Below, one piece after another: positions 29,565 to 56,683 of a stretch of 64,000 nucleotides of DNA. The position numbers and the translations under genes were made by a program. The DNA is taken from IMG/VR virus record IMGVR_UViG_3300037225_000815, positions 75-64,074 of that record; one strand, written 5' to 3'. The notes beneath the pieces were generated by a model that was not told where the DNA came from, ran no database searches, and was given only the letters and a program-made list of their open reading frames with translations. Source of the stretch: a virus (Duplodnaviria; Caudoviricetes). Positions within the stretch are counted from its first letter, which is position 1; each line of letters begins with the position of its first letter.

Positions 29565-30514
29565 GTTCTTCCTTCTGCCTTTGTGACATGCTCATAGTTG
29601 CCGCTCATCACGTACTCACCAAAGGAGTCGTCTACACTGTATATGTTAGGGTCTATGCCCATAGAAGTCAAGTCCTTGAACCGCTTCTCATCCATCCTGG
29701 AACAGATGTAATCCCAGGGGGACATGTCTTTCAAATGTGAGAAATGCGCCAGGACTTCCTTGTCGCGGAGATGGGCTATGGCCGAGAATTCGATGTCCCG
29801 GACCCTGCCGGGTACCATCTCGAGCACGTAACCAACCTCCCGGATGCAGTAACTCCGGGTATCATACATACCAGCACGGAGCAGGATGACTACTCCCTCC
29901 AGCATAGGAAGGGCCTCAATTATGTCGTAGATAATCTTCATGTAATCTATTAGGACGAACAGGTCGTCATATTGCTGGTTGTCGAAGCTGATAAGACCGT
30001 CATTGCCGCCGCAATCGTCAGAATATTCATCGATGTTGATCTTCACGTGCCTGGACAGGGTATATAGGATTTGAGCGTCATCGGGCTTCAGTTTCACCCT
30101 GGCGGCTATCATCCTAATGTCCGGCTCTCCTGTATGCTCACCGTGGAACTCCTCTACGTACTTGGAGATCTCCGCAACCTTCTTGGCTATACGGTAGGTC
30201 ACCTTCACCGGGTATGTAGTCGTGTCCAGTAGGTTCCAGATACTGTGTTGTATAGCGACATAGGCATACGTCGAGAAGCGGATATTGCGGGATGGCTTGA
30301 ACAGTTGGGCGGCACGTATCAGCCCCTCCAATCCAGCCTGGAAGATGTCATCCCTTGCCACGTTTGCCAGTGTGGCGAACTTGCCTACGATATGTCCGAC
30401 TAGGGCTATATTCTCGAGAATGAGCTTGTCGGTAGGCGTCGCCTTGGCTAGCTCCTCTGGCGATACCTTGAGGAACTTGAAAGAGTCGTAACCGTAGGAT
30501 ATGTCTGACATCAT
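29558..30514 (-). CDS. Phage-encoded sigma70-family RNA polymerase sigma factor
   Basis: Region 2: ENIALVGHIVGKF...DIFQAGLEGLIRAAQLFKPSRNIRFSTYAYVAI. Region 4: IREVGYVLEMVPGRVRDIEFSAIAHLR. Confidence 0.9.
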   Translation of the reverse strand: MMSDISYGYDSFKFLKVSPEELAKATPTDKLILENIALVGHIVGKFATLANVARDDIFQAGLEGLIRAAQLFKPSRNIRFSTYAYVAIQHSIWNLLDTTTYPVKVTYRIAKKVAEISKYVEEFHGEHTGEPDIRMIAARVKLKPDDAQILYTLSRHVKINIDEYSDDCGGNDGLISFDNQQYDDLFVLIDYMKIIYDIIEALPMLEGVVILLRAGMYDTRSYCIREVGYVLEMVPGRVRDIEFSAIAHLRDKEVLAHFSHLKDMSPWDYICSRMDEKRFKDLTSMGIDPNIYSVDDSFGEYVMSGNYEHVTKAEGRTC

Positions 30515-40259: not shown

Positions 40260-40710
40260 CGGATCCCTTTATAAACGGCTTTTCCATGGCCCCGGGTCTC
40301 CGGATGATTACAGGGATCCATCGGACGATTATCGGACGATTCCAGGCGGATCCGGAAGCGGCGGATTCCCATTTCCCGGATCCGGATATATGCCGTATAC
40401 CTCCCCTACAGGCTCCGGAACCCCGTTCTAATGTGGCGAAATATGCGGCGAAGAACCGGCAACCATCACCAGGAACCGCCGGTTATCCATCCGCGGCGGG
40501 CGGCCGACAACCCCATACACCCCGCATCCCGGCCCTATACACCCCATACCCGGAGGGAAGTTGCCGCTGGGCGGGCCACCGCGGACTCCCTATACCCGCC
40601 AAATGCGCCCGAAACATGGACATTCGGCGACTTATAGGAACCTATGGAAGGATGATGCCGCGCCTTAATAGGGGCAATCCAGGAATAATTGTGCCCGACA
40701 CCTGGTGAGA
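40260..40710. other. GC-rich non-coding strand-switch region (candidate terminus or origin)
   Basis: Dense CCGG/GGATCC, ATCGGACGATT x2, CCC(C/T)ATAC repeats; separates the divergent arms. Confidence 0.5.
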
Positions 40711-40798
40711 GTTGAGGGAGTTAGTCTTTGGTTTCATGCCCAGGGGTAGCTATCAACTCTAAGATACTAAACCAATTAAACATCCATAGGAGGATGCC

Positions 40799-40987: not shown

Positions 40988-41061
40988 ACTAGGAGGGTTT
41001 AAGCCTAGTGCGTCCAGTGGTAGAGATACCACTGGGGTACCCAGTATATAAGGAGTATGAC

Positions 41062-41289: not shown

Positions 41290-41378
41290 GTTGGGGAAGG
41301 GTAGGGGTACTAATCATTCAAGTGGCACGGTGCCTGGCCGTGGTACTAAACATAACACTATTCCATAGGAGGAATATC

Positions 41379-41546: not shown

Positions 41547-41612
41547 GCGCTAGTATACGGTTGTATGCTAGGCTGTAGGTACGAAACGAGACATTGTCTA
41601 TAGGAGGACAAC

Positions 41613-44279
41613 ATGTCTACACTTAACTACATCATAGAGACAGTACGCGAAGCCCTGCAGGCTCTCGTAGTATTCGTCTCAACCGCTGCTGCAACTGTGA
41701 AGTTCGCGAGCAAGCGGGCCAAACTCATGCTGCGTACAACGCTGCTCATCGATGCTGATGGCATCTATGACAAGCGGGACAACGTGGTTGGGATCAAGAA
41801 CCTGAGGGTCAGTAAGGTTTCCCTCTCGTTCGAGAAGGCGAAGAACCTTGTTACCAATGCCTTCCTGGCAGGTACCTTTGTGGCTCTCTGTGAACCTCTC
41901 ACAGATCTGCTCAAGGGAATCTCCAATGATGGAAGGGACATTGGGATTAGGGCTCTTAAGGCTGCGCTCGATTTCATCGAGAAGTCTTATGGGCTGACAC
42001 TCGTCGCCAACAGGTACATCGATGGCTTCAACTATGACGATGGCATCAAACGTGCCACATTGTTGTTCCATAAGAATGGACCGAAAGGCTTTGGCGAGGA
42101 TCTCTCCATGGCGCTGTTCGGCGCTCCGCTCCTGATCAAGGGAAACGACACAGTGAAGTTCATGAACTATGTATGGGCTGGAACCCAGACAAGGTTCAGC
42201 ATCATGACCGTGAACTATCTATTCACTGCCAATCATAAGGGCGGAACTGATGGTTCGGGCTGGACAACCCTCGAGTATCTGAACGCCAGGTTCCCTGAAC
42301 TGGCCAAGGAAGTCGTGGATACCAACACCCATCTGATCAAGCAGCAGGCGTTCGCCAGCATACTTGGTCATGTAAGTCCCATCAAGGGATGTATAGCCAT
42401 TGCGTACAACCGCACTGAATGGCATACATTCGGAACGGGAGTCGCTTATGACAAGGCTATCGATGCATTCGTCGTCACTGACAATGAAGTCAAGCTGGCT
42501 GCTGCAGGCATCGAGATAGGCCATGTGTATGAAGGTCGCTTTGGTGTGATCAACATGTCAGGCGAAGAGACACTGCGCAAGCCTTTCTGGAAGGCGAATC
42601 CTCAGCTGCTCGCCAGGACCAACTGGAAGGATTGCACCCGCGGAACAGCGATTGCCAAGGCCAATGCCGATAAGATCCTTGCGGCTATCACTACGAAGGA
42701 CACGTATCTGAAGCAAGTTCTGCATCTCTCCGGTAATGATGTGCAGGATCCCAAGTGGCAGGCTTCCAGGATGAGCGCCATGACAATCGCCGGTCAGCTT
42801 GTGGCTGGCTTGCCGTTCAGCGCATTCGAGTCATCCAAGTCTACCAGCGAGAACATTGCAATGAGGGAGATCAAGAAGGCACTGAAGGGAATGATCTGCT
42901 CTATTGCCAGGCTGAAGATCCCCGGTTCCTATTTCTATCCGCTGGTCGATGATAGGCTGGTTGGAAGATGGGAAGTCGGAATGTCCCCTTGGCTTGCTGA
43001 AGAGCTTGGCAAGCGCTGGAACGTAGGCCGTGACATCCATGATGGAGATACCCTGATGGTTCAGAGGTCTCCGCATATTGGAAGCGGTTATCTGGCAGTT
43101 ACCATCAAGATCATTGACCCGCTGTGCAAGTTCGACGGTATCGTTCTTAGCCGTTGGACTGCCAATCTGCTGGCTGCTGATTGTGATGGTGATCGCGTTT
43201 CACTGAGTCTCCCTATGATCGGCGATGTCATCAATCCTGAGGAGTTCCCCGAGGAGAAGGATGCATCAGAGTTCATGAAGAAGATGAAGCTGATGTCCAC
43301 TGGCAATGCGGTTGCCGATAAGCTTCTCGCTGCCACAGTTGGCAAGCTGATTGGCCTGGTTGATTTCCTCATGAGCATGCTGCATGAACGTGAGGGCAGG
43401 CTCTCCAAGAAAGTCCTGGCGTTCGGCGGCCATGTCTCGCAGGCTCTGATCAATTCCGGTAAGCATGTCGGTGAGGATGTTCTGGACATGGATGCGATCA
43501 GTGACATGATCAATCCGCTGCAGACCATTGTCGATAAGTATGGCAAGGAGAAACAGTTCCGCAAGACTATCTCCTACTTCTATCGCTATATCACCGGCAA
43601 GCTGGACGACATTGACTATGAAGACTTCGTTGAACCCAAGGGCAATTCCCCTGTGTTGAATGAAGCTTATACGACGACTCCGCTCAAGGGCGTCTATGAT
43701 GCTCTCTCCAGCACTGGCGTCAAGCCGTTCTGGTTCAACTATGATTGGTCAGCTGACAAGGCTGAATGGCTCAAGATAGTCAGGAACGCTCAGTCGATCC
43801 TTTCTACACTGGATCCGGATGGCGACTTCTATGTGAACGGCAACCAGGACAAGACGATGTGGGAAGGCAGCAAGGTATTCGTTGACCCTGCATTCTTCAC
43901 AAACAAGAGCCATCTGCCTGTTCTGCATGCCGCCATCAAGCTGCTGGGCAAGACTGCCGCCAATGCAGAGGAAGCAAGGGCGCTTCTCCGCAAGCATTTC
44001 GACGACAAGCTCATGATCCTCAAGGACGAGTATCCCCGTTATCTCGTAGCATTCTGGGCCAGGGTGTTCGCTTCTGGTACTCCGGAACGCGCGCTGATGA
44101 TGTGTCTGAACACGGCTGAGTTCACACTGGTCATCCGGGCAATCAAGAATTGGACACCGGAAGACGGTTTCAACTGGCAGGAACTGGCCAGCTGGTCAAT
44201 TCGGCACATGAGTTATGTGAAGCAGACTATCAAGGAAGTCGACTCAGAGGCTGATGAAGCTAACGAGGAAACCATCTAA
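41613..44279 (+). CDS. Single-chain double-psi-beta-barrel polymerase, YonO/cellular-RdRP-like
   Basis: Ordered motifs TDGSGW, PIKGC, TDNEVK, QRSPH and AADCDGDRV (DxDGD at 43179-43193); AGGAGG SD; 888 aa. Confidence 0.8.
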   Translation: MSTLNYIIETVREALQALVVFVSTAAATVKFASKRAKLMLRTTLLIDADGIYDKRDNVVGIKNLRVSKVSLSFEKAKNLVTNAFLAGTFVALCEPLTDLLKGISNDGRDIGIRALKAALDFIEKSYGLTLVANRYIDGFNYDDGIKRATLLFHKNGPKGFGEDLSMALFGAPLLIKGNDTVKFMNYVWAGTQTRFSIMTVNYLFTANHKGGTDGSGWTTLEYLNARFPELAKEVVDTNTHLIKQQAFASILGHVSPIKGCIAIAYNRTEWHTFGTGVAYDKAIDAFVVTDNEVKLAAAGIEIGHVYEGRFGVINMSGEETLRKPFWKANPQLLARTNWKDCTRGTAIAKANADKILAAITTKDTYLKQVLHLSGNDVQDPKWQASRMSAMTIAGQLVAGLPFSAFESSKSTSENIAMREIKKALKGMICSIARLKIPGSYFYPLVDDRLVGRWEVGMSPWLAEELGKRWNVGRDIHDGDTLMVQRSPHIGSGYLAVTIKIIDPLCKFDGIVLSRWTANLLAADCDGDRVSLSLPMIGDVINPEEFPEEKDASEFMKKMKLMSTGNAVADKLLAATVGKLIGLVDFLMSMLHEREGRLSKKVLAFGGHVSQALINSGKHVGEDVLDMDAISDMINPLQTIVDKYGKEKQFRKTISYFYRYITGKLDDIDYEDFVEPKGNSPVLNEAYTTTPLKGVYDALSSTGVKPFWFNYDWSADKAEWLKIVRNAQSILSTLDPDGDFYVNGNQDKTMWEGSKVFVDPAFFTNKSHLPVLHAAIKLLGKTAANAEEARALLRKHFDDKLMILKDEYPRYLVAFWARVFASGTPERALMMCLNTAEFTLVIRAIKNWTPEDGFNWQELASWSIRHMSYVKQTIKEVDSEADEANEETI

Positions 44280-44816
44280 TAAGCATAGTTAACTATATAT
44301 GCAGATAGATTGGAACGCAGCCGATCCGGTAACTTCCGGCTCTTACGGGGACCTGAGAAGAGTCCTTACCTGTAGGGATAGTAGGCTCCGCCCGATTGGT
44401 TACTAGTGTCCATACGGTAGGCCCTATCCGAAGAGACGCAGGACCCTTTGAATATGTCATATTCGCCCAGGTGGCGACATATTCAAGGTCTGTCCACCCT
44501 TCCTAAAGTGGACTTATCTCATACACTTGCTTACTGGGATGACTTGCCCCAGTAAGACAACGTAGAAACAAAGCCCATCTGCAGACCGTCAGGTTGATGC
44601 AGACTCCCGGAAGATAATGACTCCGGGGTGGACTTGTTCATGTATGAGATTCTATTATGCCCTAGCGGGCATATTCTTTGCCTCAAGAGACGCAGGAACC
44701 CTCGGACTGTCATACCTGAGTGCGAGCCACACAGGACACAGTTAGGGCGTCGCTGTGCCCAGATGCGGACCTGCCTCGAAACAGCCTTTCCCTTGATTCA
44801 CCATAGGAGGTGCCTT

Positions 44817-44993
44817 ATGGATAGGTTCTCCAAATTCATATTCGTCGCCGACGAACACGCCATCATCAAGTTCGTCCATGTACGCCTCAACAGGAACGAG
44901 ACGTACAACTACATCAAGCTCGCCCACAAACTGGAAGACGAGATGAGGCTCTCCATAGAGCGTGAACTCATCCGCAACCGGGCGAGGGCGTAA
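44817..44993 (+). CDS. Small early protein
   Basis: AGGAGG SD; start MDRFSKF. Confidence 0.6.
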   Translation: MDRFSKFIFVADEHAIIKFVHVRLNRNETYNYIKLAHKLEDEMRLSIERELIRNRARA

Positions 44994-45469
44994 CACCAAA
45001 CTGCGTTTAAGAGACGCAGTTTCCTTTGACTACATAGTCAGCCTAACCGCTGAACTCAATAACGTAGCTCACGTAGCCTGATTGAGGGCCAACATGATTG
45101 TCCCACAAAGGTTACACGCCCCAGAATGGGGCAGGTATACTACCTGCGTACTGATTCCTATAGGTACGCAGTTTCCTTTGAGCCTGCATAGAAATGCATA
45201 AGCCTCGAATGGATGGCTTGCCATCGGTAGAGGGGGTTCTATTCAATCCGCAGGAGAGAGCGGTGATGCCAAGTACCTTGGCTTAAACTGCGGGGAAAGG
45301 TGATGACACCCCGCATTATTATTGCATGGAGGACATCATGTTCGAACAATGCCTTATCCTCGTAGTGCTGTTATGCGCTTCAATACTGCTTAACATCATA
45401 CTGCTATCGAGGAAATGACTGCGTAAGGACTACGCAGTTCCTTTCAGAAATACCACAAGGAGGTATATC

Positions 45470-45928
45470 ATGAAGATAGTGACTCGCATCATAAGCGAAG
45501 TTTCCAAGTTCCACGTCATACTGAAGACGAAGCCGGACAACGCTGGCATCAACACCATAGGCTGGTGCGAAATCCGGATACCGTACTTCATGTCCGTCGA
45601 GGCACCCATCATCAACCTCAACAACAACTATGCCCCGTACGGAATACCCGCCTCCATCAAGGAGAAGTTCTCGGAAGGCGACGTGAAGTGGCTCAAGGTC
45701 GGCGAACGTGTGGTCGAGGGCAAGACAGTCCAGAACCACAAATGGCTCATCACAGAGAAAGGCAGGCTTGGTCTCAACCGTGAGATATCCCGGGCTGTGA
45801 AGAAATATGCCAAGGAGTTCGGACTTACGGTGGATGCACCCAAAGTCAACCTGGCCAAGGAAGCGACTACTTCCATTGACACTGGTACTGCGCAGGAGCA
45901 GAGCACCAGTGGCGAGAAGATGGAATAA
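45470..45928 (+). CDS. Hypothetical beta-rich protein (possible nucleic-acid binder)
   Basis: Hairpin element plus AAGGAGG SD upstream. Confidence 0.7.
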   Translation: MKIVTRIISEVSKFHVILKTKPDNAGINTIGWCEIRIPYFMSVEAPIINLNNNYAPYGIPASIKEKFSEGDVKWLKVGERVVEGKTVQNHKWLITEKGRLGLNREISRAVKKYAKEFGLTVDAPKVNLAKEATTSIDTGTAQEQSTSGEKME

Positions 45929-45992
45929 GCACAAGGACTGCGTTACCGGAAGGGACGCAGTTCGCTTTGAATAATACCATAGGAGGTATATC

Positions 45993-46202
45993 ATGTCAGA
46001 AAGAATGGAAAGAGTGAAAGTCGTCCTCATGGTCCAGAAGGCATCAGATGCCATCTGCGACGTAATCCACAACATGACTCCCAAGTCATTCAAGGCATGC
46101 AAACAGTACGTGAAAGCCGTCAGCAAGGCAGTCACGAAACTGCAGAAAGCGGGCGTCATCGAGGAACTCACGGACCTCGTCGGCAAGGCATGGAACAAGT
46201 AA
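45993..46202 (+). CDS. Small helical protein
   Basis: Hairpin element plus AGGAGG SD. Confidence 0.7.
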   Translation: MSERMERVKVVLMVQKASDAICDVIHNMTPKSFKACKQYVKAVSKAVTKLQKAGVIEELTDLVGKAWNK

Positions 46203-46245
46203 TTCCAAACTGCGTAGGGGAAGACCTTACGCAGTTCCATTCGAA

Positions 46246-46300
46246 CGCCATCGCTAGGCTGAAATGCCGGGGCTATGGGTTCGAATCCCAAGATGGCACA
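46246..46300 (+). ncRNA. tRNA-like mini element lacking a D arm
   Basis: GCCATC/GATGGC acceptor-like stem, TGGG-TTCGAAT-CCCA T arm, GGC-TGAAAT-GCC hairpin. Confidence 0.45.
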
Positions 46301-46311
46301 GGAGGCCAACC

Positions 46312-46425
46312 ATGAAACAGTCAAAGGCGGAGAAGAAGGCCATCAAGAAACTGAAGGAGCTCGAGAAGAAAGTCGGCATCACGGCCGAGGAAGCGGAAGC
46401 CCTTCTGAAAGGTCTGTATCCCTAA
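46312..46425 (+). CDS. Short Lys/Glu-rich peptide
   Basis: AGGAGG SD; MKQSKAEKKAIKKLKELEKK. Confidence 0.5.
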   Translation: MKQSKAEKKAIKKLKELEKKVGITAEEAEALLKGLYP

Positions 46426-46584
46426 GAGAACCAATAAGTGAAGAGTCTCCTACACCAGGATTCTAGACAACCTGGACAAACCCGTATAGGCCATGCGGAC
46501 TGGGAGACTCGCGTCCTACTATCCTCCTATACTGGGACTGTGCCAATTAGTATCGGCGCAGTTCCTTTTGACAAGGAGGACACC

Positions 46585-46758
46585 ATGAAGATACTGACAA
46601 TGGAAGAAATCAGTAAGATGCCCATCCCCACCAAGTTGCTCAACGACCTGAGGACTATGGCTATGGACACTGCCGTCAAGGTTCAAAGTCTGAGCCCCGA
46701 GGAGCAGAAGCGCCTCACTGAAGACGCCAAGAGAATCGTACAACAGTACCTGCGTTAG
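46585..46758 (+). CDS. Small protein
   Basis: Hairpin element plus AAGGAGG; its stop lies inside the next hairpin. Confidence 0.65.
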   Translation: MKILTMEEISKMPIPTKLLNDLRTMAMDTAVKVQSLSPEEQKRLTEDAKRIVQQYLR

Positions 46759-46807
46759 GGAAACCTGACGCAGTTCTCTCTGAATACCACACCCAAGGAG
46801 GGTAAAC

Positions 46808-47233
46808 ATGATTACTGTATTACTCATCATCAGTGTACTTGCAAACCTCGGACTGCTCGTCACCATCCTGAAACAGACCAAGTCCAGGAACGACGAACAG
46901 GAAACCCGTGACCTCAAAGCCCGAGAGGAAGCGGAGAAGAAACAGGAAGACTACATAGAAGGCCTGTTACAGAACATCCACGACCAGGACGTCCACATCG
47001 AAGTCCAAGCCAAGGAAATTGCCTCACTGAAAGAGACAATCAAGAGACTGGAAGACAGCATGACCAAGGGCGCCAAACTCGAGGAAGGCCTCAAGAGCGT
47101 CGGTGATGCGCTGTCACCCAATGGATTGGGCAAAGGCATCGGCATGCTAGTCCGCAACATCAAGGCCATAGGGCCCACCATCGGCAACGGGTTCAAGGAA
47201 GGCTACAACCAGGGCCTGCTCGAGAACAAGTAA
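46808..47233 (+). CDS. Membrane-anchored coiled-coil protein
   Basis: N-terminal TM segment, coiled coil, AAGGAGG SD. Confidence 0.7.
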   Translation: MITVLLIISVLANLGLLVTILKQTKSRNDEQETRDLKAREEAEKKQEDYIEGLLQNIHDQDVHIEVQAKEIASLKETIKRLEDSMTKGAKLEEGLKSVGDALSPNGLGKGIGMLVRNIKAIGPTIGNGFKEGYNQGLLENK

Positions 47234-47296
47234 TCAAGCACTGCGTTGGGTGAAAGCCTGACGCAGTCCCTTTCAGAATCTACCAGGAGGTATCAC

Positions 47297-47548
47297 ATGA
47301 ACATGAAACTCGAACGGAACCTCGCAGTCGCCGGAGCAACAACCGGAATCGCCGTCGCCAACGCACTCCGCAACACGGCTATCGGGGCCAAGAAAGTCGC
47401 TTCCTTCACCACGAAAGTGGCCAGGAATGCGTGGGCCTATGTGGTCGCCGGAGCCAAAACAGTCGGCAAGTCGACAGTCAATGCCTTCAAGGGTATCGGC
47501 GAAGTCGGCAAGCAGGAACTCGAGGTTGCCAAGGCCAAACAGCGGTAG
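47297..47548 (+). CDS. Ala/Lys-rich amphipathic protein
   Basis: Hairpin element plus AGGAGG. Confidence 0.65.
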   Translation: MNMKLERNLAVAGATTGIAVANALRNTAIGAKKVASFTTKVARNAWAYVVAGAKTVGKSTVNAFKGIGEVGKQELEVAKAKQR

Positions 47549-47602
47549 ACACAACACTGCGTAGGGTAACTCCTTACGCAGTCGCTTTCGAGGAGGTGCC
47601 TT

Positions 47603-47905
47603 ATGGCAATGACAATGATTATCACCATGTTCGGAATCATGCTGGCTACATCCATCTCATTGTATGAGGTGCTGAGATGTTCCCGGCCGTTCGGCTGGTT
47701 CATCAGGATTATCGACAAGAGTTTCCTGTTCCAGATGGCTTTCCACTTCGCAATCGCCTTCGTCATCAGGAGCATAAGCGGAGAAGGCATGACCGCAGGC
47801 GGTGCAAATCTCGCCTCGACGGCAGTGTTTCCCCTGTACTGCTTCATCAGGAACGCAATCAACGGGAACTACCGCATGCTGAACGGCGGATGGAGGACCA
47901 AATGA
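47603..47905 (+). CDS. Membrane protein
   Basis: About three hydrophobic segments; AGGAGG. Confidence 0.65.
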   Translation: MAMTMIITMFGIMLATSISLYEVLRCSRPFGWFIRIIDKSFLFQMAFHFAIAFVIRSISGEGMTAGGANLASTAVFPLYCFIRNAINGNYRMLNGGWRTK

Positions 47906-48039
47906 TAGCAATCGTGCTCACCACATTATGGGTCCTCTTCATCCTGGCCGTGTTCCATGTCACGTGGCCATGGTACATCATCACCCTGGTCGTAGCGGGA
48001 GCGTTGCTCTGCATCTACATCTTCGACGACAGCTTCTAA
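47902..48039 (+). CDS. Small 2-TM protein
   Basis: ATGA overlap with the upstream gene; GGAGG. Confidence 0.55.
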   Translation: MIAIVLTTLWVLFILAVFHVTWPWYIITLVVAGALLCIYIFDDSF

Positions 48040-48140
48040 GCAAGGAGGCCCAATGCACTTCATACTAGGGCTCATCATCGGTATCATAGTCTACAGATGG
48101 CTATTCTGTAGCAACAACACCAAGACCAAGGAGGTCAAGC

Positions 48141-48674
48141 ATGACGACACAGAACACAAGGACTGACCCTCAAGTCAGCCAGCACGCTCTGGACGCCGTC
48201 CGCATCGCCAAGGAGAAGCACGACAAGGCTGTCCTGCTCAACAAGGCGAAAGTGGAGGAGTCCAGGCTCAAGAGGCGTGAGGCGGGACGCAAGTTCGCCC
48301 AGCGCATCAAGAACGGGGTCGAGAAGACCGTCTCGTGGTATGAGCATGAGTTCACGAACATATGCTATGACGGCATGGTATATGGCGGTGCGTCAGCCCT
48401 CATAGGCGCCACCATAGGCATGCTCATGTCCAACCCGGCAATCATCTCGATGGCTGTCACGTTCGGTGGAATCACCGCCATCATCCCGATAGTCGTCGCC
48501 CTGGCCTACTGGGCTGTCAAAGGCCTGGTAGAACTCGGCAAAGCGACTGTCAGGGCCATCAAGAAAGTCCACAAGGACGCTCCGGTCATCAAGGAAGCCA
48601 TGAAAGAAGGCTCCAAAGTGCCGGCCAATCAGGACCCTCCACCCCCAATGGCTGGGGCAGAAGCCACCGCATAG
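48141..48674 (+). CDS. Membrane protein with two central TMs
   Basis: AAGGAGG SD. Confidence 0.7.
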   Translation: MTTQNTRTDPQVSQHALDAVRIAKEKHDKAVLLNKAKVEESRLKRREAGRKFAQRIKNGVEKTVSWYEHEFTNICYDGMVYGGASALIGATIGMLMSNPAIISMAVTFGGITAIIPIVVALAYWAVKGLVELGKATVRAIKKVHKDAPVIKEAMKEGSKVPANQDPPPPMAGAEATA

Positions 48675-48714
48675 CCATCAAGACTGCATTCCCGAAAGGG
48701 GTGCAGTCCCTTTT

Positions 48715-48852
48715 GTGCTCAAGCGAGGGGGCAGGGGCCCCCGAGCATATCATAATGCTGGGCAGGGACCCAGCGTAATAATAGATGAATCCTTACGCAG
48801 TAAAGGATGAATGGGCTTGGGCGGAGCCCAAATAGCGGGCAGGGACCCGCCA
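48715..48852 (+). ncRNA. Candidate multi-hairpin sRNA with CAGGG(A/G) loops
   Basis: Begins at the purine of a hairpin element; four short GC stems, three with CAGGGR loops. Confidence 0.45.
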
Positions 48853-49246
48853 AAGTGAAACGTGTTTCCAGATAACGGCGAATTCACGTCAAGTTTGGGG
48901 AATATCGAACGGAAAGTGAGTCATTTCTCCAGGTTTGCACGGTTTCGCACGGAATCCCGTGATAAACACGTAATAACCCCCGTAATTTGCTCTGTTTGAG
49001 CGAATAACCTGGGGTAAACAGGTGTTTGAAAGGGCATAGGTCCTGTCCCGTGAGTAGGATCCTGATGGGTGTACCCTATAAGTATCCTGACCGGGAGGGA
49101 TGATGCCCGCCGATTGAGGGATGCCCGGAATGGCCCGCATATATGCGGGAATAAAGGGTGTAGGCTATTCATGTTTATCGGCATGCGACACGCATGCGAT
49201 TAAGGGATTGCGTACTTGTATGGACATCGCTATGAAAGGAGAACGT

Positions 49247-49507
49247 ATGAAGTTCAAAGTTGGCTGGTGGTACCGGCTCGTCGACACAATGCAATCGTTC
49301 AATGGCGACATAATGAACGACTACCAATGGCATAAGTGCGTTGAATCCGTTCCGGACGGCGAATGGACCGCCGTGAAGATGGAATCCGAATCCGGTACTC
49401 CGACAACAAGGCAATACGCATACGACGAAGCGCAGTACAACCCCGGAACACGGGATAAGAACACAGTTTCGTCGCCGGCACCGGAACTGAACGTCAGGGA
49501 AGCATAA
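49247..49507 (+). CDS. Hypothetical protein
   Basis: AAGGAG SD; start MKFKVGW. Confidence 0.55.
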   Translation: MKFKVGWWYRLVDTMQSFNGDIMNDYQWHKCVESVPDGEWTAVKMESESGTPTTRQYAYDEAQYNPGTRDKNTVSSPAPELNVREA

Positions 49508-49552
49508 CCTAACGCAGGGAATCGTCGAAATCTAAACACAAGGAGGCTCGCC

Positions 49553-49903
49553 ATGGCGAGACGAATACGTGAACGTAACAGCCAGTTCAACAAGCGGTTG
49601 GCCGGCGCATTCAACAGGTTCATCGCCCACCAGGCGGACAACCTGGGGAAAGTCGTCTATGACAACCACGAGATGGTCATAGCCATGGGGCTGTCGAACA
49701 TCATAGTGGGAATCGCAGTGTGCGTCCTGACCGGTGAGGTGACGATACTCTATGTCATCGCATCGATAGTGGCGAACACCCTACTGGACATCGGCGTCTC
49801 GTTCCTGTCGTCGCTCATCATGAGGGCGATAAGCGAGAGGCTCGGCAAGGAGGTGAAGCATGGACCGCAAGTCGACATTCAGCTCATACCTCAGTCGATA
49901 TGA
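49553..49903 (+). CDS. Membrane protein
   Basis: AAGGAGG SD; two TMs. Confidence 0.6.
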   Translation: MARRIRERNSQFNKRLAGAFNRFIAHQADNLGKVVYDNHEMVIAMGLSNIIVGIAVCVLTGEVTILYVIASIVANTLLDIGVSFLSSLIMRAISERLGKEVKHGPQVDIQLIPQSI

Positions 49904-50132
49904 CCTGCACTCGATGCAGGTCAGCGACGAGGGCAACACAATCTACGAGTTCGTCCTGAGGACGGACCGCAGGCGGTCCGTGTTCATCGAGGAAACGAAG
50001 TCCCTGATACGGGTATTGGACCCGCAGGTCAGTGACGACGTCGAAACAGTCAACGGATATGAGGACTCTATCCGTTACTTTGCGACGGTAGAACTGAAGA
50101 CGGGAAGCAGATGCCTGCGACAAACCTCGTAG
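49860..50132 (+). CDS. Hypothetical protein
   Basis: AAGGAGG SD. Confidence 0.55.
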   Translation: MDRKSTFSSYLSRYDLHSMQVSDEGNTIYEFVLRTDRRRSVFIEETKSLIRVLDPQVSDDVETVNGYEDSIRYFATVELKTGSRCLRQTS

Positions 50133-50758
50133 GCTTCGGCGACTACCGTGGCAGTCAATGGCGGGATGTACCCACGTCATACCTGATGTGGATACTCTCG
50201 CCCGAGTTCCATGACCACCACGACGCAAAGGTCAATGCCCGCATCGAACTGGCCCGTCGCACGGGGTTCGTACAGAACCACGGAAGCCCGAACAGCCAGC
50301 CAATCTATACCGCACAGGTTAGGGAGGCCGGCGACACATGGGAACCGGAGAGGAAGGAACCAGACATACTCACGGAGCGTGAGGTGTTCCTGATATGCAA
50401 ACTTGCATCGGAACGTTACATCACAAACTCCAATATGCATACATTCCCATCCGGAATGTCAGTACTAGACTGTCGCAGGAAATCGCTTAATGACACTTGC
50501 CATGAATGCTTCACATGGCCAGACGCAGAATCCATTGAAAGGATGATGTCGATAATGCGAGAGCTCAGCGACGACCTAGAAGCGAGAGCCCAAGTTGCAT
50601 CACCCCTCAGGTCACGTCGCAGACGGAACAACCGAGGAACGGAAGAGCTTGCCCAGGACATACTACGGGGCATGGGCGTAGACATATCTGAAGAGAACGA
50701 AGGCCAACCGGAAGAGACGCCAAACGACCCTTTCGGTGACCCAACCATCCCATTCTGA
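50111..50758 (+). CDS. DUF3820-like N-terminal domain protein with SSB-like acidic C-tail
   Basis: FGDYRG...DVPTSYLMWI; ends DPFGDPTIPF. Confidence 0.6.
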   Translation: MPATNLVGFGDYRGSQWRDVPTSYLMWILSPEFHDHHDAKVNARIELARRTGFVQNHGSPNSQPIYTAQVREAGDTWEPERKEPDILTEREVFLICKLASERYITNSNMHTFPSGMSVLDCRRKSLNDTCHECFTWPDAESIERMMSIMRELSDDLEARAQVASPLRSRRRRNNRGTEELAQDILRGMGVDISEENEGQPEETPNDPFGDPTIPF

Positions 50759-50768
50759 AGGAGGACAC

Positions 50769-50990
50769 ATGCTGTCAGACGTCGAAAGAGTAGCCATCGC
50801 AGTCAGGCGCATGGACGCTCTCATGCCTTCCTACTATAGGAAGGAAGCCAAATTCATCGAACTCCTGGAACAGGTATGCGGTTCAGACCGCTTTCTGCGA
50901 CAAGAAGTCGGCAGACACTATGGGGCACAGCCCAAAAGGAAGAGACTAGTCGAAGAGCACCTGACCTTCTTCGACTTAAACCCCCGATAG
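50769..50990 (+). CDS. Hypothetical protein
   Basis: AAGGAGG SD; start MLSDVER. Confidence 0.55.
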   Translation: MLSDVERVAIAVRRMDALMPSYYRKEAKFIELLEQVCGSDRFLRQEVGRHYGAQPKRKRLVEEHLTFFDLNPR

Positions 50991-51349
50991 GGTACGCCTA
51001 CGGCGGAAATGTATTGCACACGGGTTAAGGTGTGCGCCATTGTCCGCTTTCATAGGGTTGAGAACCCGCCCGGGACGGAAGAGCCGGCAATTCGACTCTG
51101 TCGTCCAGGGGCGAGACCCGTTTGTCGCAGGGCTCACGAGTGCAACGCAGTCATACCCAAGACCTTCAGTGAAACCAAGAGGCTACGCATGCTTGCTCAC
51201 TTGCATGCGCCTCGCAATCCGTCTGGGGCGCCCAGCCGGATTCCCTCCGGTTGCTCGACGCCTGCTGGCGTTCGCATCGCAGGCTACGCAAACATGGACT
51301 GCGCCGACCTGACGCAGTCCCTTTCAGATACCATACAAGGAGAATCATC

Positions 51350-51751
51350 ATGAAGAAGACATCATTGCTCATCGGAATCGTGGCAATCATCGCATGCATA
51401 TCTGCCTGCTCGAAGATGAATCCTATGGCGCCCAAGCTGGAATCGGCCCCGGCGACCAACTTCATCGTACCGTGGACGACAATGAATACTACCTACACAG
51501 TATCCAACTTCGTTACAAGACTGACCAATACGTCAGGTAATCTTACAACGTTGGATGTGAGAGTTATATTCGGATTCGCCGACGGAACAGAAGCTCAAGC
51601 GACGACAACCACGCCTGACCAATACGGTGTAATGATATCGTATGGAATGATAGGCTTATCATTCTACACGGACAACAACCGGAACGTGTACCAGAACTAC
51701 TTCCAGAGTGGTGGAGCAACTCCCACCTACTACAGGTACTCAATCAGGTAA
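51350..51751 (+). CDS. Lipoprotein
   Basis: MKK, hydrophobic stretch, then ISA-C lipobox; hairpin element upstream. Confidence 0.7.
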   Translation: MKKTSLLIGIVAIIACISACSKMNPMAPKLESAPATNFIVPWTTMNTTYTVSNFVTRLTNTSGNLTTLDVRVIFGFADGTEAQATTTTPDQYGVMISYGMIGLSFYTDNNRNVYQNYFQSGGATPTYYRYSIR

Positions 51752-52037
51752 CCACGAGACTGCGCCAGGAAGTTCCTGACGCAGTTGCTTTCGATTGTCA
51801 CAGATGGCAGGTGGGATTAGAAGCGTCCAGCCTTTAATGAGTGCGGGCAGACCCCGGCCAGCAAGTGGATATGGGCGGTAACAGTCCATGTCAAGTACTG
51901 CACGAAACCCAACGTGGTACGACTCCTAAGAGGGAGAGGATAAAGCGACCCGCTTCGGCGTAACAGCAAACCATTCATGGCAGTCATGCGGACTTGCTCC
52001 AAGCGATTGGCGCAGTCCCTTTTGAAAGGAGGCGCAG

Positions 52038-52241
52038 ATGCTTACACGATACAAGTCCATCAACCTGATGAAGGCGCAGGAAGTCCGGGCCAAAGCGCTG
52101 GCCAAACTCCTGGGCGCAGAAGTCAACAAGCGGATTGACGTCATCCTGTGGAATCCCCATCACCTGAAGAGCGCTTCGATGATGAAGGACATCACCAGGG
52201 TGGAGCTCATCAAATGCATCCAGAAGGAACTGGCGAAGTAA
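52038..52241 (+). CDS. Small protein
   Basis: Hairpin element plus AAGGAGG. Confidence 0.65.
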   Translation: MLTRYKSINLMKAQEVRAKALAKLLGAEVNKRIDVILWNPHHLKSASMMKDITRVELIKCIQKELAK

Positions 52242-52387
52242 ACCGACAAGGAGGATACATGATTGTACTACTGGCAGTAGCCGGAGTTATCATCTGGCTC
52301 GCACTGGAATGATTCAGTCATAGCGCACCCTCCTAAACTGCGTCGGGCACCATGCCTGACGCAGTCTTATCCGGACAAGGAGGCATC

Positions 52388-52558
52388 ATGAACCAAGGCG
52401 AATTGATAGAATCTCACAGGCAGGAAATCGAGACCGAGATTGCCTGGATGGAAACCACGCTCAAGCAGGCTCTATACCTGAAAGAGGAACTGGCCAAGTC
52501 AAGGGCACGTGTGGAATACCTCGAGGTCTCCATAATGGAACTTGTGTCAAAGACCTGA
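52388..52558 (+). CDS. Small coiled-coil protein
   Basis: Hairpin element plus AAGGAGG. Confidence 0.6.
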   Translation: MNQGELIESHRQEIETEIAWMETTLKQALYLKEELAKSRARVEYLEVSIMELVSKT

Positions 52559-52585
52559 CGCAGTTCCTTTTGCAAGGAGGACACC

Positions 52586-52864
52586 ATGATTACCACGAAA
52601 CTGGTGAATGACATTCATGCAGAAGGCTCGGCCATCAACCTGTTCAACCTGGGCTTCCTATACAAAGGGAGCACATGGGAGATATTCTGCATGTTCGAGA
52701 TGGCCAATTTGTTCCAACACAAGAACATCAGTGAACGCACACAGTGGCTCGTAACCGAAGACCAGAAAGTCTACCTGTCGCAGGACAGCGGGAACGGATA
52801 CCACTCGGAATGGGCGTACTTTGATGTCGAACACGAGACAGTGTTCATTACTGCGCCTGCATGA
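52586..52864 (+). CDS. Small protein
   Basis: Hairpin element plus AAGGAGG. Confidence 0.65.
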   Translation: MITTKLVNDIHAEGSAINLFNLGFLYKGSTWEIFCMFEMANLFQHKNISERTQWLVTEDQKVYLSQDSGNGYHSEWAYFDVEHETVFITAPA

Positions 52865-52909
52865 CGCAGTTCCTTTCGATTAATCCTATACCACAAGGAG
52901 GTAGAGCAA

Positions 52910-53320
52910 ATGGTTAATCAAATCGTCATACCGACGACATCGGAAGCGGTGTCGCTGAGATTCCGGCCGTACCATACGGCCAAGTCCGAGAAACTTCTGG
53001 GATACCTGGAAGTGACTGTGAAGAGCATGATGGGAAGCGTCCTGACTTCGTTCCCCGTCTTCACGTGGCAGGACCCCAAGTCCCAGGCCAAGCGCTACGG
53101 CGTCATCGGCAAGCTCGACTACAAGGTCGGGACGAAGGAACACTCCCACGGCTTCCTGTCACGGGACCTGAAAGCCTACATCAACCGGATACTCGAGGAG
53201 AACTCCTCGATGCTGACCGGTGAGTCCTCCGAGTTCGTCGAGACACATGAGGAGCATGTGCCCGCCCAGCAGGCGAGCGCAGAGTCAACCCCCGACGGAG
53301 AGTCGGAAAGAACCGCCTAA
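52910..53320 (+). CDS. Beta-rich protein with acidic tail (SpoVG/PC4-like guess)
   Basis: SLRFRPY...LLGYLEVTV; hairpin element plus AAGGAGG. Confidence 0.6.
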   Translation: MVNQIVIPTTSEAVSLRFRPYHTAKSEKLLGYLEVTVKSMMGSVLTSFPVFTWQDPKSQAKRYGVIGKLDYKVGTKEHSHGFLSRDLKAYINRILEENSSMLTGESSEFVETHEEHVPAQQASAESTPDGESERTA

Positions 53321-53394
53321 CCAACGACTGCGCCAGGAAGACCTGACGCAGTCTCCTTCGGAGAAATCGTTGATGCTTTAACACAGGAGGCACC

Positions 53395-53670
53395 ATGAAG
53401 TTCGACAAGGAGCTCATACTCAAGGTCAAAGCCGTGGTCTCTATGGAAATCAGGATACTGGATGTCGAAGGCGGAACGATGCTTGAGCAGAACCCCAACA
53501 AGGCCGGCTCGGTATATGCCGACATCTACAGGAACCATAGGGCATGGTTCATGTGCTGGTTCAAGCCGGACAACGGCGACCCATGGAGGCTGTTCACGCT
53601 CTCGCCCACCGGTGAGTTCGAGGAAATCGGTGGCGACAAGATATCCCGTCTCAAGGCAATCATGGGATGA
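53395..53670 (+). CDS. Small protein
   Basis: Hairpin element plus AGGAGG. Confidence 0.65.
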   Translation: MKFDKELILKVKAVVSMEIRILDVEGGTMLEQNPNKAGSVYADIYRNHRAWFMCWFKPDNGDPWRLFTLSPTGEFEEIGGDKISRLKAIMG

Positions 53671-54173
53671 TTCCCTCCCTATCTGCGCCAGGACACAAGG
53701 ATGTGCCTGACGCAGTCCCTTTTGGGACTGCGTATCCGTCAGACAGGGCCGTGATAGCATGTGTGGCGACATGCGTGTAATGATGAGTCTCTCTGTGCTA
53801 TAAACGTGCCGAGGCAGGCCAATAAGCCCTCGGTGGCTTGGACGCAGTTCCTTTTGCATCGTAGGAGAGGCCTACCTGTTGAATATGGTGAAAGTCCATA
53901 GCAGCCTGGGATACTCTCCCAGTGAACAAAAACGCTCCTGCGTCCTGAAGTGGGGGATACCCGCGACTGGACGCAGTTGTTTTCGGATAACCCACTAGGG
54001 CAGACCGAACTTATGTTCCCCTCCAAAGGACATAAGGGACTCTCGCCAATACGGAGTCGTCCGGGAAGAACCGAAACGCCCGGACCTGAAATATCCATCG
54101 GAAGTAGGACATGTACGGGGTAGTACTGGACGTCCCAGCTGCCCCGTCACTTTTACCTTAAGGAGGTAAACCG

Positions 54174-54482
54174 ATGCTAATAGAACCATCAAAAGGAACC
54201 GGTCGAGCAAGATGCAGATTGTGCCGCAAACTCATCAAAGAAGGTGCCCAACAGATACGTATAAAGATGGCATACGCCCAGGAATGCGCACACAGAAAGT
54301 GCATGACCAAGACAAGACGATTCGTATGCCAGGAGTGTAGTTTGAGGAATAGAACAACTCCATGTTTATTGGTTCTTAAAGGATGTGAACCTGATTCACT
54401 TGGGCCGAAACTTTGTCCCATTGATTCTGCGGGTTGGCCTCCCAAATGGGTCGAGATCAAGCTCAAACGGAGGAAATCATGA
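54174..54482 (+). CDS. PARP-type zinc-finger-like protein
   Basis: IEPSKGTGRARCRLCRKLIKEG...HRKC matches the zf-PARP pattern. Confidence 0.6.
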   Translation: MLIEPSKGTGRARCRLCRKLIKEGAQQIRIKMAYAQECAHRKCMTKTRRFVCQECSLRNRTTPCLLVLKGCEPDSLGPKLCPIDSAGWPPKWVEIKLKRRKS

Positions 54483-54871
54483 CCTATCCTGACCATATTA
54501 CAAAAGGATGGCTACGCGAACACCCGGACTGCATATTCGTATTCGGCGACAACATGGCCAGATTCGGACATGGCGGAGCGGCAGCCTTAAGGGACTTGCC
54601 AAACACCTACGGATTCATCACCCAGAAGTATCCGGACTCAAGGCCCGAATCCCATTATAAGCCAGAAGAATATACGCATATCCTGAACACGGAAACCGAA
54701 TTCCTCCGAGAACGCATTCTGTGTAATCCCGATCTTACCTTTATGATTACGAAGCTTGGCGGCGGACTCGCCAACATGTTCAATATCCGCCCGGCAATCA
54801 TCGAGAAGCTCAAGGAGTTCGAGGACACAGCCAAATACCCGAACGTGGTATTCATAGGGGGTAACACATGA
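54479..54871 (+). CDS. Macrodomain-like phage protein
   Basis: IFVFGDN..RFGHGGAA.LR..PN.YGFIT.K and KLGGGLA motifs. Confidence 0.6.
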   Translation: MTYPDHITKGWLREHPDCIFVFGDNMARFGHGGAAALRDLPNTYGFITQKYPDSRPESHYKPEEYTHILNTETEFLRERILCNPDLTFMITKLGGGLANMFNIRPAIIEKLKEFEDTAKYPNVVFIGGNT

Positions 54872-55113
54872 TTATCGGCGGACAGGAATTCCCCGACGTA
54901 TGCGTACCGGAATGCCGGTTGGGCAAGGAATACAGGGGACAGGGCGACCTATGCGACAGATGCCCGATCTTCTGCTGCACCCTGTACCAGGACGAACCCG
55001 GTGAGCCTCCCCACAGGATCCTGGAACCCGACGACTACCGTCCAGACTGGGCGAAAGCCTGGAAGGAATGGTTCGACGGAGGAATGGCAGGATATCCCAA
55101 GATAAGCCTATGA
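54868..55113 (+). CDS. Cys-rich small protein
   Basis: C...C, CDRCPIFCC. Confidence 0.55.
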   Translation: MIIGGQEFPDVCVPECRLGKEYRGQGDLCDRCPIFCCTLYQDEPGEPPHRILEPDDYRPDWAKAWKEWFDGGMAGYPKISL

Positions 55114-55126
55114 CAAGGAGAAGCCA

Positions 55127-55630
55127 GTGTCAAACGAGAATCTGAACATATGTTCCAAGTGCGGCGGAGAATGCTGCAAACTCTTCCCCGGGTTCTACTA
55201 CCCCGATGACTTCAGGAAGCGGAACGGAAGCCTAGACTGGGAAAGGATACTCAACCTCCTTACCTCGGGCCTGGCACAGATTGACAGGTGGGAAGATACC
55301 GAACCAGTCTACTTCCTGAGGCCAAAGATGGTAATGAAGAATGACAGCCATAACGGCATATTCTCATACCCATGGGGCGGGGACCCGGGCATCCATCTGA
55401 CGGAATACGGATGCTCGCTCAAGTACAAACAGCGCCCGTCGCAGTGCCGGCTCCTGGACCCGGTGAAGTGTGAGAAAGGCGACCAGCAGGACTCGGATCT
55501 CGGAAGGGAATCCGCAATGCGCGAATGGAAGAGGCTATCGAATAAGCTACAAGACATCGGCAAGGAAGCCGGAAGGAGAAGAGATGTCACAACAAAGGGA
55601 CATAGCGGTCCTCAAGAAGTTGCTTTATGA
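55127..55630 (+). CDS. YkgJ-like CxxCxxCC metal-cluster protein
   Basis: CSKCGGECCK...GCSL...RPSQCR. Confidence 0.7.
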   Translation: MSNENLNICSKCGGECCKLFPGFYYPDDFRKRNGSLDWERILNLLTSGLAQIDRWEDTEPVYFLRPKMVMKNDSHNGIFSYPWGGDPGIHLTEYGCSLKYKQRPSQCRLLDPVKCEKGDQQDSDLGRESAMREWKRLSNKLQDIGKEAGRRRDVTTKGHSGPQEVAL

Positions 55631-55781
55631 CCGCCGACAGGCTATCATCAACGACAGAACAGTGATATCCAGCGTCGAGGCGGACGACGTTATCGACGCC
55701 CTGACAAGCGCAATATCAAGCATACGGCGAAACACTCGCATTACGTGTCCGGAATGCGACGCCGAAATCGACCTGGACTAA
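55584..55781 (+). CDS. Small protein
   Basis: Start MSQQRD; CPEC near the C-terminus. Confidence 0.5.
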   Translation: MSQQRDIAVLKKLLYDRRQAIINDRTVISSVEADDVIDALTSAISSIRRNTRITCPECDAEIDLD

Positions 55782-55792
55782 AGGAGAACAAC

Positions 55793-56314
55793 ATGGCGAA
55801 ACTCAAATTCGAACACGATGTCAGATGCACGGCATGTGGAGGAACTGGACTATACCGCGGAATGGCGGAACGCGACGGAGCGACGGTCGTCTGCTACAGA
55901 TGCGAAGGAACGGGTAAGGAGCATATCGTACATGAGTACGAACCGTTCAATGGCAGGAAACTCGACCCGACCATCAAGCGCGTCTACCAGACTGCCGGAG
56001 GATATTGTATCACCGACAAAGACGTCACGCATGCTGGGCAGGTAATCCACTTCTCGAAGGCCGGAATCTCCTACCAAGAATGGATGGACGGCGGTAAACC
56101 ACTGCCCATAAGGGAACTCCATTGCCCAGTCATACACTTCGGACAGGGAACACCAATCGGAGAATGGTTCAAGCACCACCATGACCACGAGACATTCAAG
56201 TCAGACCTACATGAATGTGAAATGTGCTTCAGCCCATGCTCAGAGAAGCATCGGGAACAGTACTGGGCGTTCTACGACCAGCATGAAGCCAAATTCCTGA
56301 AACTGAAGGAGTGA
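55793..56314 (+). CDS. DnaJ-type Zn-finger protein
   Basis: CTACGGTG...CYRCEGTG; AAGGAG SD. Confidence 0.7.
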   Translation: MAKLKFEHDVRCTACGGTGLYRGMAERDGATVVCYRCEGTGKEHIVHEYEPFNGRKLDPTIKRVYQTAGGYCITDKDVTHAGQVIHFSKAGISYQEWMDGGKPLPIRELHCPVIHFGQGTPIGEWFKHHHDHETFKSDLHECEMCFSPCSEKHREQYWAFYDQHEAKFLKLKE

Positions 56315-56592: not shown

Positions 56593-56683
56593 TCGCCAGA
56601 ATTCTCAGCTAGGTCATTGGCTGCGCCGGGGTAACCTGACGCAGTCATCCTTGGCAGGTTGGTTCCCCAAGGAGCAACCACAC

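Follow-up and report, generated by a model that had tools for sequence, protein, structure and literature searches.

The gene at 41613..44279 (+ strand) of the window, by which we mean the whole 64,000-nucleotide stretch of viral DNA analysed here (Duplodnaviria; Caudoviricetes; positions 75 to 64,074 of IMG/VR record IMGVR_UViG_3300037225_000815), most probably codes for a highly divergent RNA polymerase of the single-chain YonO/QDE-1 type. Its product, here named P0001, is probably a two-barrel nucleotide polymerase of the clade that comprises YonO, the Thermus-phage enzymes gp64 and gp96, crAss gp66, and the polymerases of eukaryotic RNA interference (RNAi), and it likely serves as a DNA-templated phage transcriptase. 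This reading rests on the open reading frame (ORF), the conservation of its motifs, two double-psi beta-barrels (DPBBs) in predicted models, and similarity of both fold and sequence profile. Single-chain two-barrel RNA polymerases are minimal relatives of the cellular and the eukaryotic RNAi polymerases, and only few have been studied, namely YonO, P23-45 gp64 and gp96, crAss gp66 and QDE-1. The gene and the relevant parts of its product are located as follows.

41602..41607, + strand: strong ribosome-binding site AGGAGG, read in the sequence, 5 nt before the P0001 ATG.
41613..44279, + strand: P0001 gene, candidate single-chain two-barrel RNA polymerase; open frame of 888 residues with an ATG start.
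42192..42563, + strand: predicted N-terminal double-psi beta-barrel, residues 194-317, beta-like (VIA-align, predicted model).
42249..42260, + strand: DGSG motif, residues 213-216, with D213 and G214 invariant and equivalent to D249-G250 of the YonO family.
42384..42389, + strand: KG motif, residues 258-259, invariant and equivalent to the invariant K271-G272 of the YonO family.
42492..42494, + strand: downstream lysine K294, within NEVK, invariant and equivalent to the invariant K316 of the YonO family.
42918..43226, + strand: predicted C-terminal double-psi beta-barrel, residues 436-538, beta'-like, containing RSPH and DCDGD (VIA-align, predicted model).
43065..43076, + strand: RSPH motif, residues 485-488, with R485 and P487 invariant and equivalent to the invariant R492 and P494 of the YonO family.
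43179..43193, + strand: DCDGD, residues 523-527, predicted metal-binding aspartate triad, with D523, D525, G526 and D527 invariant.

The initial annotation of this DNA had listed DGSG, KG, a downstream lysine, RSPH and DCDGD in that order, together with the lack of a GDK/HGNK motif, and every item was borne out: the motifs follow each other along the chain as DGSG, KG, K294, RSPH and DCDGD, and GDK, GNK and HGNK are all absent from the P0001 sequence. Eight KG dipeptides occur in P0001, the one at residues 258-259 being the sole family-invariant one. RSPH is also the consensus of the YonO family, and DCDGD aligns both with D535, D537 and D539 of that family and with the DFDGD of P23-45 gp96. 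When the P0001 sequence was shuffled with its composition preserved, the ordered set DGxG..KG..RxP..DxDGD with loose spacing arose in 1 of 20000 shuffles. P0001 also fits the filter given in Supplementary Data 4 of a survey of two-barrel polymerases (PMC10770324), a DxDxD triad preceded by [RK]xP within 20-100 residues, as R485-S-P487 is followed after 35 residues by D523-C-D525-G-D527; this loose filter alone was passed by 1166 of the 20000 shuffles and is weak by itself. Among 28 large ORFs of the window that were checked, a DxDGD-type string was found only in P0001 and in a second polymerase, P0008 (see below). Another DxDGD-like string in P0001, DPDGD at residue 734, is not conserved in the relatives and was dismissed as a chance occurrence.

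Relatives of P0001 are few. A word-indexed search in which 7999 candidates were scored returned P0001 itself, the full-length P0002 (56% identity) and P0003 (51%), and P0004, a 555-residue piece with 40% identity to P0001; repeating the word-indexed search with the family profile gave no further relatives. An exhaustive HMMER search of 1.84 billion representative proteins yielded four proteins at E<=0.001, two of them new, both distant and full-length (P0005, 29%, E 1.2e-18; P0007, 26%, E 1.9e-7), and a search from P0005 added only P0009, a seventh member in which DG, KG, RYP and DFDGD could be seen by eye. The family thus numbers about seven among 1.84 billion representative proteins. No match was obtained in the phage genome collection, either by tblastn with P0001 or by megablast with positions 41000-45000, and no relative was confirmed in an IMG/VR scan with the family alignment; scans of metagenomes and of genomes each turned up a single short contig (L010 and L011), with little flanking sequence. 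In an alignment of six family members, which are 21-56% identical to P0001, 31 columns were invariant, and the residues conserved in six of six included D213, G214, K243, K258, G259, E292, K294, Q331, R335, R485, P487, D523, D525, G526 and D527. The motifs first picked out in P0001 coincide exactly with the residues that remain unchanged even at 21% identity.

The structure of the whole P0001 chain was predicted with AlphaFold2 using the six-sequence alignment, and when the PDB was searched with this model in Foldseek, 23 matches reached E<=0.001. QDE-1 took all of ranks 1-10 (2.3e-8 to 6.7e-7), followed by P32 gp64 (2.2e-5), Arabidopsis RDR2 (2.3e-5), P74 gp62 (1.3e-4), P23-45 gp96 (1.5e-4) and crAss phi14:2 gp66 (1.6e-4), and beta' chains of multisubunit polymerases appeared only from about E 0.004. 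The comparison by AlphaFold and Foldseek proposed in the initial annotation accordingly has QDE-1, RDR2, the gp64/gp96 proteins of the P23-45 group and crAss gp66 on top. Among the BFVD models of viral proteins, the matches included a phage protein annotated as RNA-dependent RNA polymerase (RdRP; 1.3e-5), P23-45 A7XX94 (gp64; 1e-4) and proteins from the uncultured phages cr4_1 and cr130_1, as well as baculovirus LEF-9 and polymerase subunits of giant viruses.

At the level of domains, the predicted barrel at residues 436-538 aligned with the N-domain DPBB of p97 in VIA-align with a Z of 11.7 and a root mean square deviation (rmsd) of 2.0 A over 84 aligned residues. The N-terminal part, residues 30-340, was folded alone (311 residues), which gave a model with a predicted local distance difference test score (pLDDT) of 73.9 and a predicted template modelling score (pTM) of 0.68; in Foldseek this model matched QDE-1 (2.3e-4), crAss gp66 (9.1e-4) and P32 gp64 (6.6e-3). 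VIA-align of the same model against 48161 PDB-representative chains gave no row with Z>=8 and 34 with Z>=5. crAss gp66 ranked first (Z 7.1, 242 residues), ahead of maize RDR2 (ZmRDR2; Z 6.8, 212 residues) and QDE-1 (Z 6.5 over 229 residues), and the remaining rows were mostly DPBB folds at Z 5-6.5, such as expansins, kiwellin, designed DPBB proteins, VAT-N and CDC48-N. These DPBB-fold rows align to model residues 165-288, corresponding to P0001 residues 194-317, and the barrel predicted there carries D213-G214 (of DGSG), K243, K258-G259 and K294. The Z values of the N-terminal barrel are modest, and the argument is carried by their consistency. The initial annotation had named the lack of two DPBB domains as the finding that would speak against it; both barrels were found in the predicted models, the second, N-terminal one with moderate support.

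Profile comparison points in the same direction. A YonO family of six sequences was assembled from YonO (SPBc2 record) and the proteins of Perkons, PMBT24, BUCT082, TR-TP1 and 0305phi8-36, the five added members having been found via YonO or the Pfam RdRP model PF05183. Its invariant residues are D249-G250, R266, K271-G272, S313, K316, Q355, R492, P494, D535, D537 and D539, and its consensus reads DGxG, KG, RSPH and DFDGD. In hhalign, the P0001-family profile and the YonO-family profile aligned over 362 columns (P0001 residues 212-618) with E 9.9e-5 and a score of 49.6, compared with scores of 13.2-22.6 over at most 30 columns in the null comparisons (20 column shuffles and 2 reversals). The alignment is collinear, pairing DG with DG, KG with KG, K294 with K316, Q331 with Q355, RSPH with RSPH and DCDGD with DxDGD, and it runs on into the helical region past the second barrel. 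The window also encodes a polymerase of the multisubunit kind and a sigma factor, which are located as follows.

58076..61564, + strand: P0008, fused beta-beta' polymerase of 1162 residues (Pfam, motifs, and beta/beta' matches in PDB and NCBIfam).
29558..30514, - strand: sigma-70-family factor of 318 residues (Pfam Sigma70_r2, E 2.7e-7; PHROG 351).

Compared with P0008, the P0001 and YonO families each aligned over only 44-49 columns (E 0.06-0.09), the P0001 family over 44. The initial assignment of P0001 to the single-chain YonO/QDE-1 type and not to the multisubunit type is in line with this short match to P0008, as well as with the two modelled barrels, the Foldseek matches, the alignment to the YonO profile and the absence of GDK/HGNK. 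We place P0001 as a separate, very divergent family in the YonO/QDE-1 clade, and not as a YonO orthologue.

A number of observations weigh against this reading. The whole-chain model is poor (pLDDT 52.8, pTM 0.31), and the TM-scores of its matches are only 0.09-0.24, the latter because the model is badly packed. All Z values of the N-terminal barrel lie below 8, a range in which, as the tool warns, a match possibly reflects a common arrangement. The hhalign probability for P0001 and the YonO family is just 58%, well below 90%; the P0001 profile gave no match to the single YonO sequence, and the P0001 family hidden Markov model (HMM) found nothing at E<=1 in the whole record of 0305phi8-36, despite the clear PF05183 protein encoded there. 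Searches with P0001 returned nothing in PHROGs, nothing usable among PDB sequences and one unrelated match in NCBIfam (E 0.14), and PF05183 had no match in the whole record at E<=10 (gathering score 23.8 bits; the positive control 0305phi8-36 scored 69.1 bits). Enzymes of the clade also use single-stranded DNA (ssDNA) or RNA as templates, and P0008 together with the sigma factor could account for all transcription of the phage. The failure of PF05183 is not disqualifying, because YonO and most members of its family fail too: YonO itself matches no Pfam family at E<=0.01, and PF05183 matches only two of the six YonO-family members. The P0001 family HMM likewise found nothing at E<=1 in the whole record of Moorella phage MTATph1.

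Below the thresholds, Pfam RNA_pol_Rpb1_2 (PF00623) matched residues 461-534 of P0001 (E 0.21, 12.3 bits against a cut-off of 25.3), spanning RSPH to DCDGD, and no Pfam match to Rpb2_6 (PF00562) was found in P0001. Searched against PDB sequences, the family profile had P23-45 gp96 as its top hit, also sub-threshold (E 0.15) and aligned at RxP..DxDGD. The ESM Atlas clusters nearest to P0001 carry PF05183, which we take as a lead only. That P0001 might be inactive, a degenerate or structural DPBB protein whose motifs are a relic or a chance resemblance, would agree with the lack of any curated HMM at threshold and with the low-confidence model. The residues of catalytic type are nevertheless all invariant down to 21% identity, the ordered motif set arose in a single one of 20000 shuffles, and the collinear 362-column profile alignment lies far above the nulls, which together make an inactive protein very improbable.

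If P0001 is a two-barrel polymerase, its active site would, by homology, lie between the two double-psi beta-barrels. D523, D525 and D527 of the C-terminal barrel (residues 436-538) would hold the catalytic Mg2+, with R485 and P487 in the same barrel, and K258, K294 and perhaps K243 of the N-terminal barrel (residues 194-317), along with D213-G214, would contact substrate and product. P0001 would then most likely carry out host-independent, sigma-free, DNA-templated transcription of part of the phage genome, in the manner of YonO and P23-45 gp64. DNA-templated transcription is the most likely activity because the characterised phage members of the clade are DNA-dependent transcriptases that work without host subunits. 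The initial annotation had stated that template preference cannot be read from sequence, and we agree. QDE-1, the best structural match, has both DNA- and RNA-dependent activity (PMC9508822), crAss gp66 and QDE-1 are reported to prefer ssDNA in vitro (preprint 10.1101/2020.03.07.982082), and priming by phage RNA polymerases has been raised as a possibility (Iyer et al., PMC7824862); P0001 could on these grounds act mainly on RNA or ssDNA, making complementary or double-stranded RNA or replication primers instead of being a promoter-directed transcriptase. No primase or DNA polymerase was recognised on the fragment, which would suit such a role, but the fragment is about a quarter of a genome, so missing replication genes carry no weight, and the characterised phage members YonO, P23-45 gp64 and crAss gp66 are described as transcriptases. 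We regard a role mainly on RNA or ssDNA as quite unlikely.

The individual known systems were compared to P0001, the nearest by profile being YonO from the Bacillus prophage SPbeta. YonO is also a single chain (839 residues, against 888 in P0001) and is described as a processive DNA-dependent RNA polymerase that transcribes the SPbeta late genes (PMC5467207). In its family, as in P0001, DGxG, KG, a downstream K, RSPH and DxDGD follow the same order at similar distances, the invariant columns of both families coincide over the 362-column alignment, and GDK/HGNK is lacking. The families differ in the triad, which reads DFDGD or DNDGD in the YonO family and DCDGD in P0001, and neither BLAST nor HMM searches link P0001 to any phage of the collection. 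Whereas YonO serves late transcription in a temperate siphovirus, the P0001 gene is part of a non-structural block, in a phage with a tail-sheath match among its structural genes. Single-subunit enzymes like YonO have also been noted in 0305phi8-36 and phage c-st, and the RdRP/YonO group is described as lacking the SBHM/flap insert (Iyer et al., PMC7824862).

In Foldseek, P0001 is matched best by QDE-1 from Neurospora, whether the whole model (E 2.3e-8) or the N-terminal part alone (2.3e-4) is used, and QDE-1 and plant RDR2 have two barrels in the same order as P0001 (VIA-align Z 6.5-6.8 over 212-229 residues). Identity in these structural alignments is 9-13%, P0001 has no PF05183 match, and QDE-1 and RDR2 are eukaryotic RNA-silencing enzymes whereas P0001 is a phage protein. 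The Thermus phage P23-45 group (non-virion gp64, as in P32 gp64 and P74 gp62, and gp96) consists, like the proposed P0001, of single-chain two-barrel polymerases from phages. The gp64 chains of this group, however, are about 590-616 residues long and much shorter than P0001, gp96 is a virion protein within a 5002-residue tape-measure protein, and no significant sequence match links P0001 to the proteins of this group. P23-45 gp64 has been reported to use GC-rich promoters of its own for the transcription of early genes and some of the middle genes, and P23-45 sets a precedent for a phage that has two such enzymes along with two classes of promoter (PMC10770324). The two P23-45 enzymes are paralogues from one clade, while P0001 and P0008 belong to different clades.

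The crAss phi14:2 gp66 was the top VIA-align match for the N-terminal part of P0001 (Z 7.1, 242 residues, rmsd 5.5 A). It has 2166 residues in the solved chain and is packaged in the virion and self-inhibited, while there is no sign of P0001 being a virion protein. The crAss-family motif is given as DFDxD, and gp66 is reported to transcribe early genes and to prefer ssDNA in vitro (preprint 10.1101/2020.03.07.982082). Multisubunit beta/beta' polymerases and their fused forms share with P0001 the two-barrel active site and the aspartate triad, and differ in that P0001 has neither GDK/HGNK nor an Rpb2_6 match. Two-barrel polymerases are sorted into 23 families and two clades by Chaban et al. (PMC10770324), who also report that many viral genomes encode two polymerases; those phage polymerase pairs of their Supplementary Data 4 that were inspected are from the same or related families. 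We regard the P0001 family as a new, rare family within a known kind.

P0008 and the sigma factor were absent from the initial annotation and bear on any division of labour in this phage. P0008 carries both diagnostic Pfam matches above their cut-offs (RNA_pol_Rpb2_6, E 1.1e-11; RNA_pol_Rpb1_2, E 5.9e-7) and the motifs GDKLADLHGNK (GDK/HGNK) and DFDGD; no relatives were found by tblastn of the phage collection or by the IMG/VR scan, and similar viral clusters in the protein Atlas offer a lead. In the sigma factor, regions 2 to 4 are covered by RpoD, SigBFG and FliA models, with NCBIfam RpoD/SigA, SigBFG and FliA matching residues 28-252 at E 5e-20 to 1e-15, below the equivalog cut-offs. Its gene, on the structural strand, has glycosyltransferase and methyltransferase genes around it, and the factor would pair with either the host core or P0008.

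The record is a linear viral contig of 64074 bases and 27% complete according to CheckV. Phages of 176-235 kb encode the nearest terminases (Moorella MTATph1, 30%; KLEB27-3, 27%; 0305phi8-36, 24%), and the scanned ORFs of the contig include no recognisable DNA polymerase, primase or helicase, so that much of the phage genome is probably missing from it. From position 1 to about 40.4 kb the genes lie on the - strand and include those for head, portal, terminase and sheath; the gene sets then switch strands, as located below.

40373..40798, no strand: C-rich gap at the switch from the - to the + gene set, with short repeated words such as ATACACCCC.
40799-40987, 41062-41289 and 41379-41546, + strand: three small ORFs upstream of P0001, each with an AGGAG-type ribosome-binding site.

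P0001 is the first large gene past the strand switch. The initial annotation had called it the first large gene of the + arm, and this stands for the position after the switch, with the qualifications that three small ORFs precede it and that the 'arms' are local features, because the contig is a fragment. The relatives on L010 and L011 also have small co-directional ORFs upstream. A simple scan of 39500-46500 for sigma-70-type sites gave 13 against 5.9 expected, none of them on the + strand within the 40373-40798 gap, and was uninformative. Beyond P0001, a repeated element extends over the small-gene cluster towards P0008.

44434..57229, + strand (all copies): hairpin element array of about 21 copies, each of the form ACTGCGTnAGG..CCTGACGCAGT followed by yCCTTTc.

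The repeated sequence of this element reads ccTGACGCAGTyCCTTTc. A strict pattern gave 12 matches where 0.51 were expected, and none of 100 shuffles reached 12. The complementary arm ACTGCG lies upstream in 15 of the 21 copies; with their flanks, the copies mostly form hairpins of 10-13 bp (-14 to -23 kcal/mol), followed by a T-rich tail. Most copies lie 30-50 nt before a start codon, and in 12 of 21 the next 50 nt or so contain a ribosome-binding site and a start codon. There is no copy before P0001, the operon that has P0008 at its end carries the last copy at its head, and the element is absent from the 118 nt available downstream of the homologue on L011. When IMG/VR was scanned for exact matches to the core of the element, 35 loci were returned; 34 of these have one match each, which we judge, without a computed expectation, to be at chance level. 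The two-copy locus (L022) is a coding repeat on an unrelated contig in which the P0001 family HMM finds nothing, and was set aside. Four kinds of function would fit the element: phage promoter, terminator or attenuator, RNA-processing site, and operator.

The initial annotation had suggested that P0001 may be an early or middle transcriptase, like T7 gp1. The gene order allows such a timing, which is a reasonable guess and goes no further than that. As a possible and still tentative scheme, P0001 would be made from the first operon after the switch and would then transcribe the small-gene cluster at 44.4-57.2 kb, which is marked by the about 21 hairpin copies and ends with the P0008 operon, while the structural genes would be read by a sigma-dependent enzyme. 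Nothing ties the hairpin element to P0001 or to P0008, and this counts against the timing part of the reading. A bolder version, which we consider unlikely, is a three-tier and largely host-independent transcription programme with polymerases from both two-barrel clades. P0001 would take the 10-13 bp hairpin element as an extruded or single-stranded hairpin promoter and switch on the small-gene cluster and the P0008 operon, after which P0008 would pair with the phage sigma-70-family factor and read the structural genes. The N4 virion polymerase is an analogue for the use of hairpin promoters; to our knowledge, a hairpin promoter of this type has not been described for a two-barrel polymerase.

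The opposite assignment, in which P0001, still an enzyme of this class, transcribes the late (structural) genes and the hairpin cluster is read by the host enzyme or by P0008, draws on YonO, the nearest family by profile, which is described as transcribing late genes (PMC5467207), and on the fact that no element or promoter is tied to P0001. Several features of the structural strand speak for a sigma-dependent enzyme there instead. The sigma-70-family factor is encoded among the structural gene set, and classical terminators of a GC hairpin with a T-run follow some structural genes in the gaps of 2072-16500 on the - strand (for example upstream of 2083-3402 and of 9486-10067). A few -35/-10-like sites also occur upstream of structural genes, such as TTGACG-17-TACAAT upstream of 12714-14768. 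The promoter signal is weak, with 5 matches against 2.2 expected: TAYAATAT upstream of structural genes occurred 5 times against 2.16 expected, a count reached by 6 of 100 shuffles, and CTATAATA occurred there twice against 0.84 expected, neither being significant. A late role for P0001 appears improbable on this balance.

The P0001 family, which is missed by the curated HMM libraries, adds to the sequence diversity known for the clade and reveals its fixed residues, namely DG, KG, K, RxP and DxDGD. Here, a candidate YonO-type enzyme shares one fragment with a fused beta-beta' enzyme of compact size, a sigma-70-family factor and a dense array of the conserved hairpin element. Should the enzymes be expressible, they would offer a compact system for studying how unlike polymerases divide a viral genome between them, and which promoters they use. 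No practical consequence is claimed for P0001.

Some further features were seen on the structural strand. The largest gene there is 24630-28310 (-), encoding 1226 residues with no PHROG or Pfam match and no DxDGD-type string. The genes at 3-2072, 2083-3402 and 3460-4191 (-) look like an array of paralogues, and a separate gene at 10145-11455 matches other PHROGs of major head proteins. Two homing-endonuclease-like genes, at 21327-22043 and 36199-36906 (-), match phrog_314; the former also matches GIY-YIG and HNH families and lies between a matchless gene of 657 residues (22050-24023) and a terminase-adjacent gene. Finally, a 51-nt repeat with two copies of 76% identity, at 37207-37257 and 37621-37671, lies in the small-gene region of the - strand, with a short hairpin in each copy.

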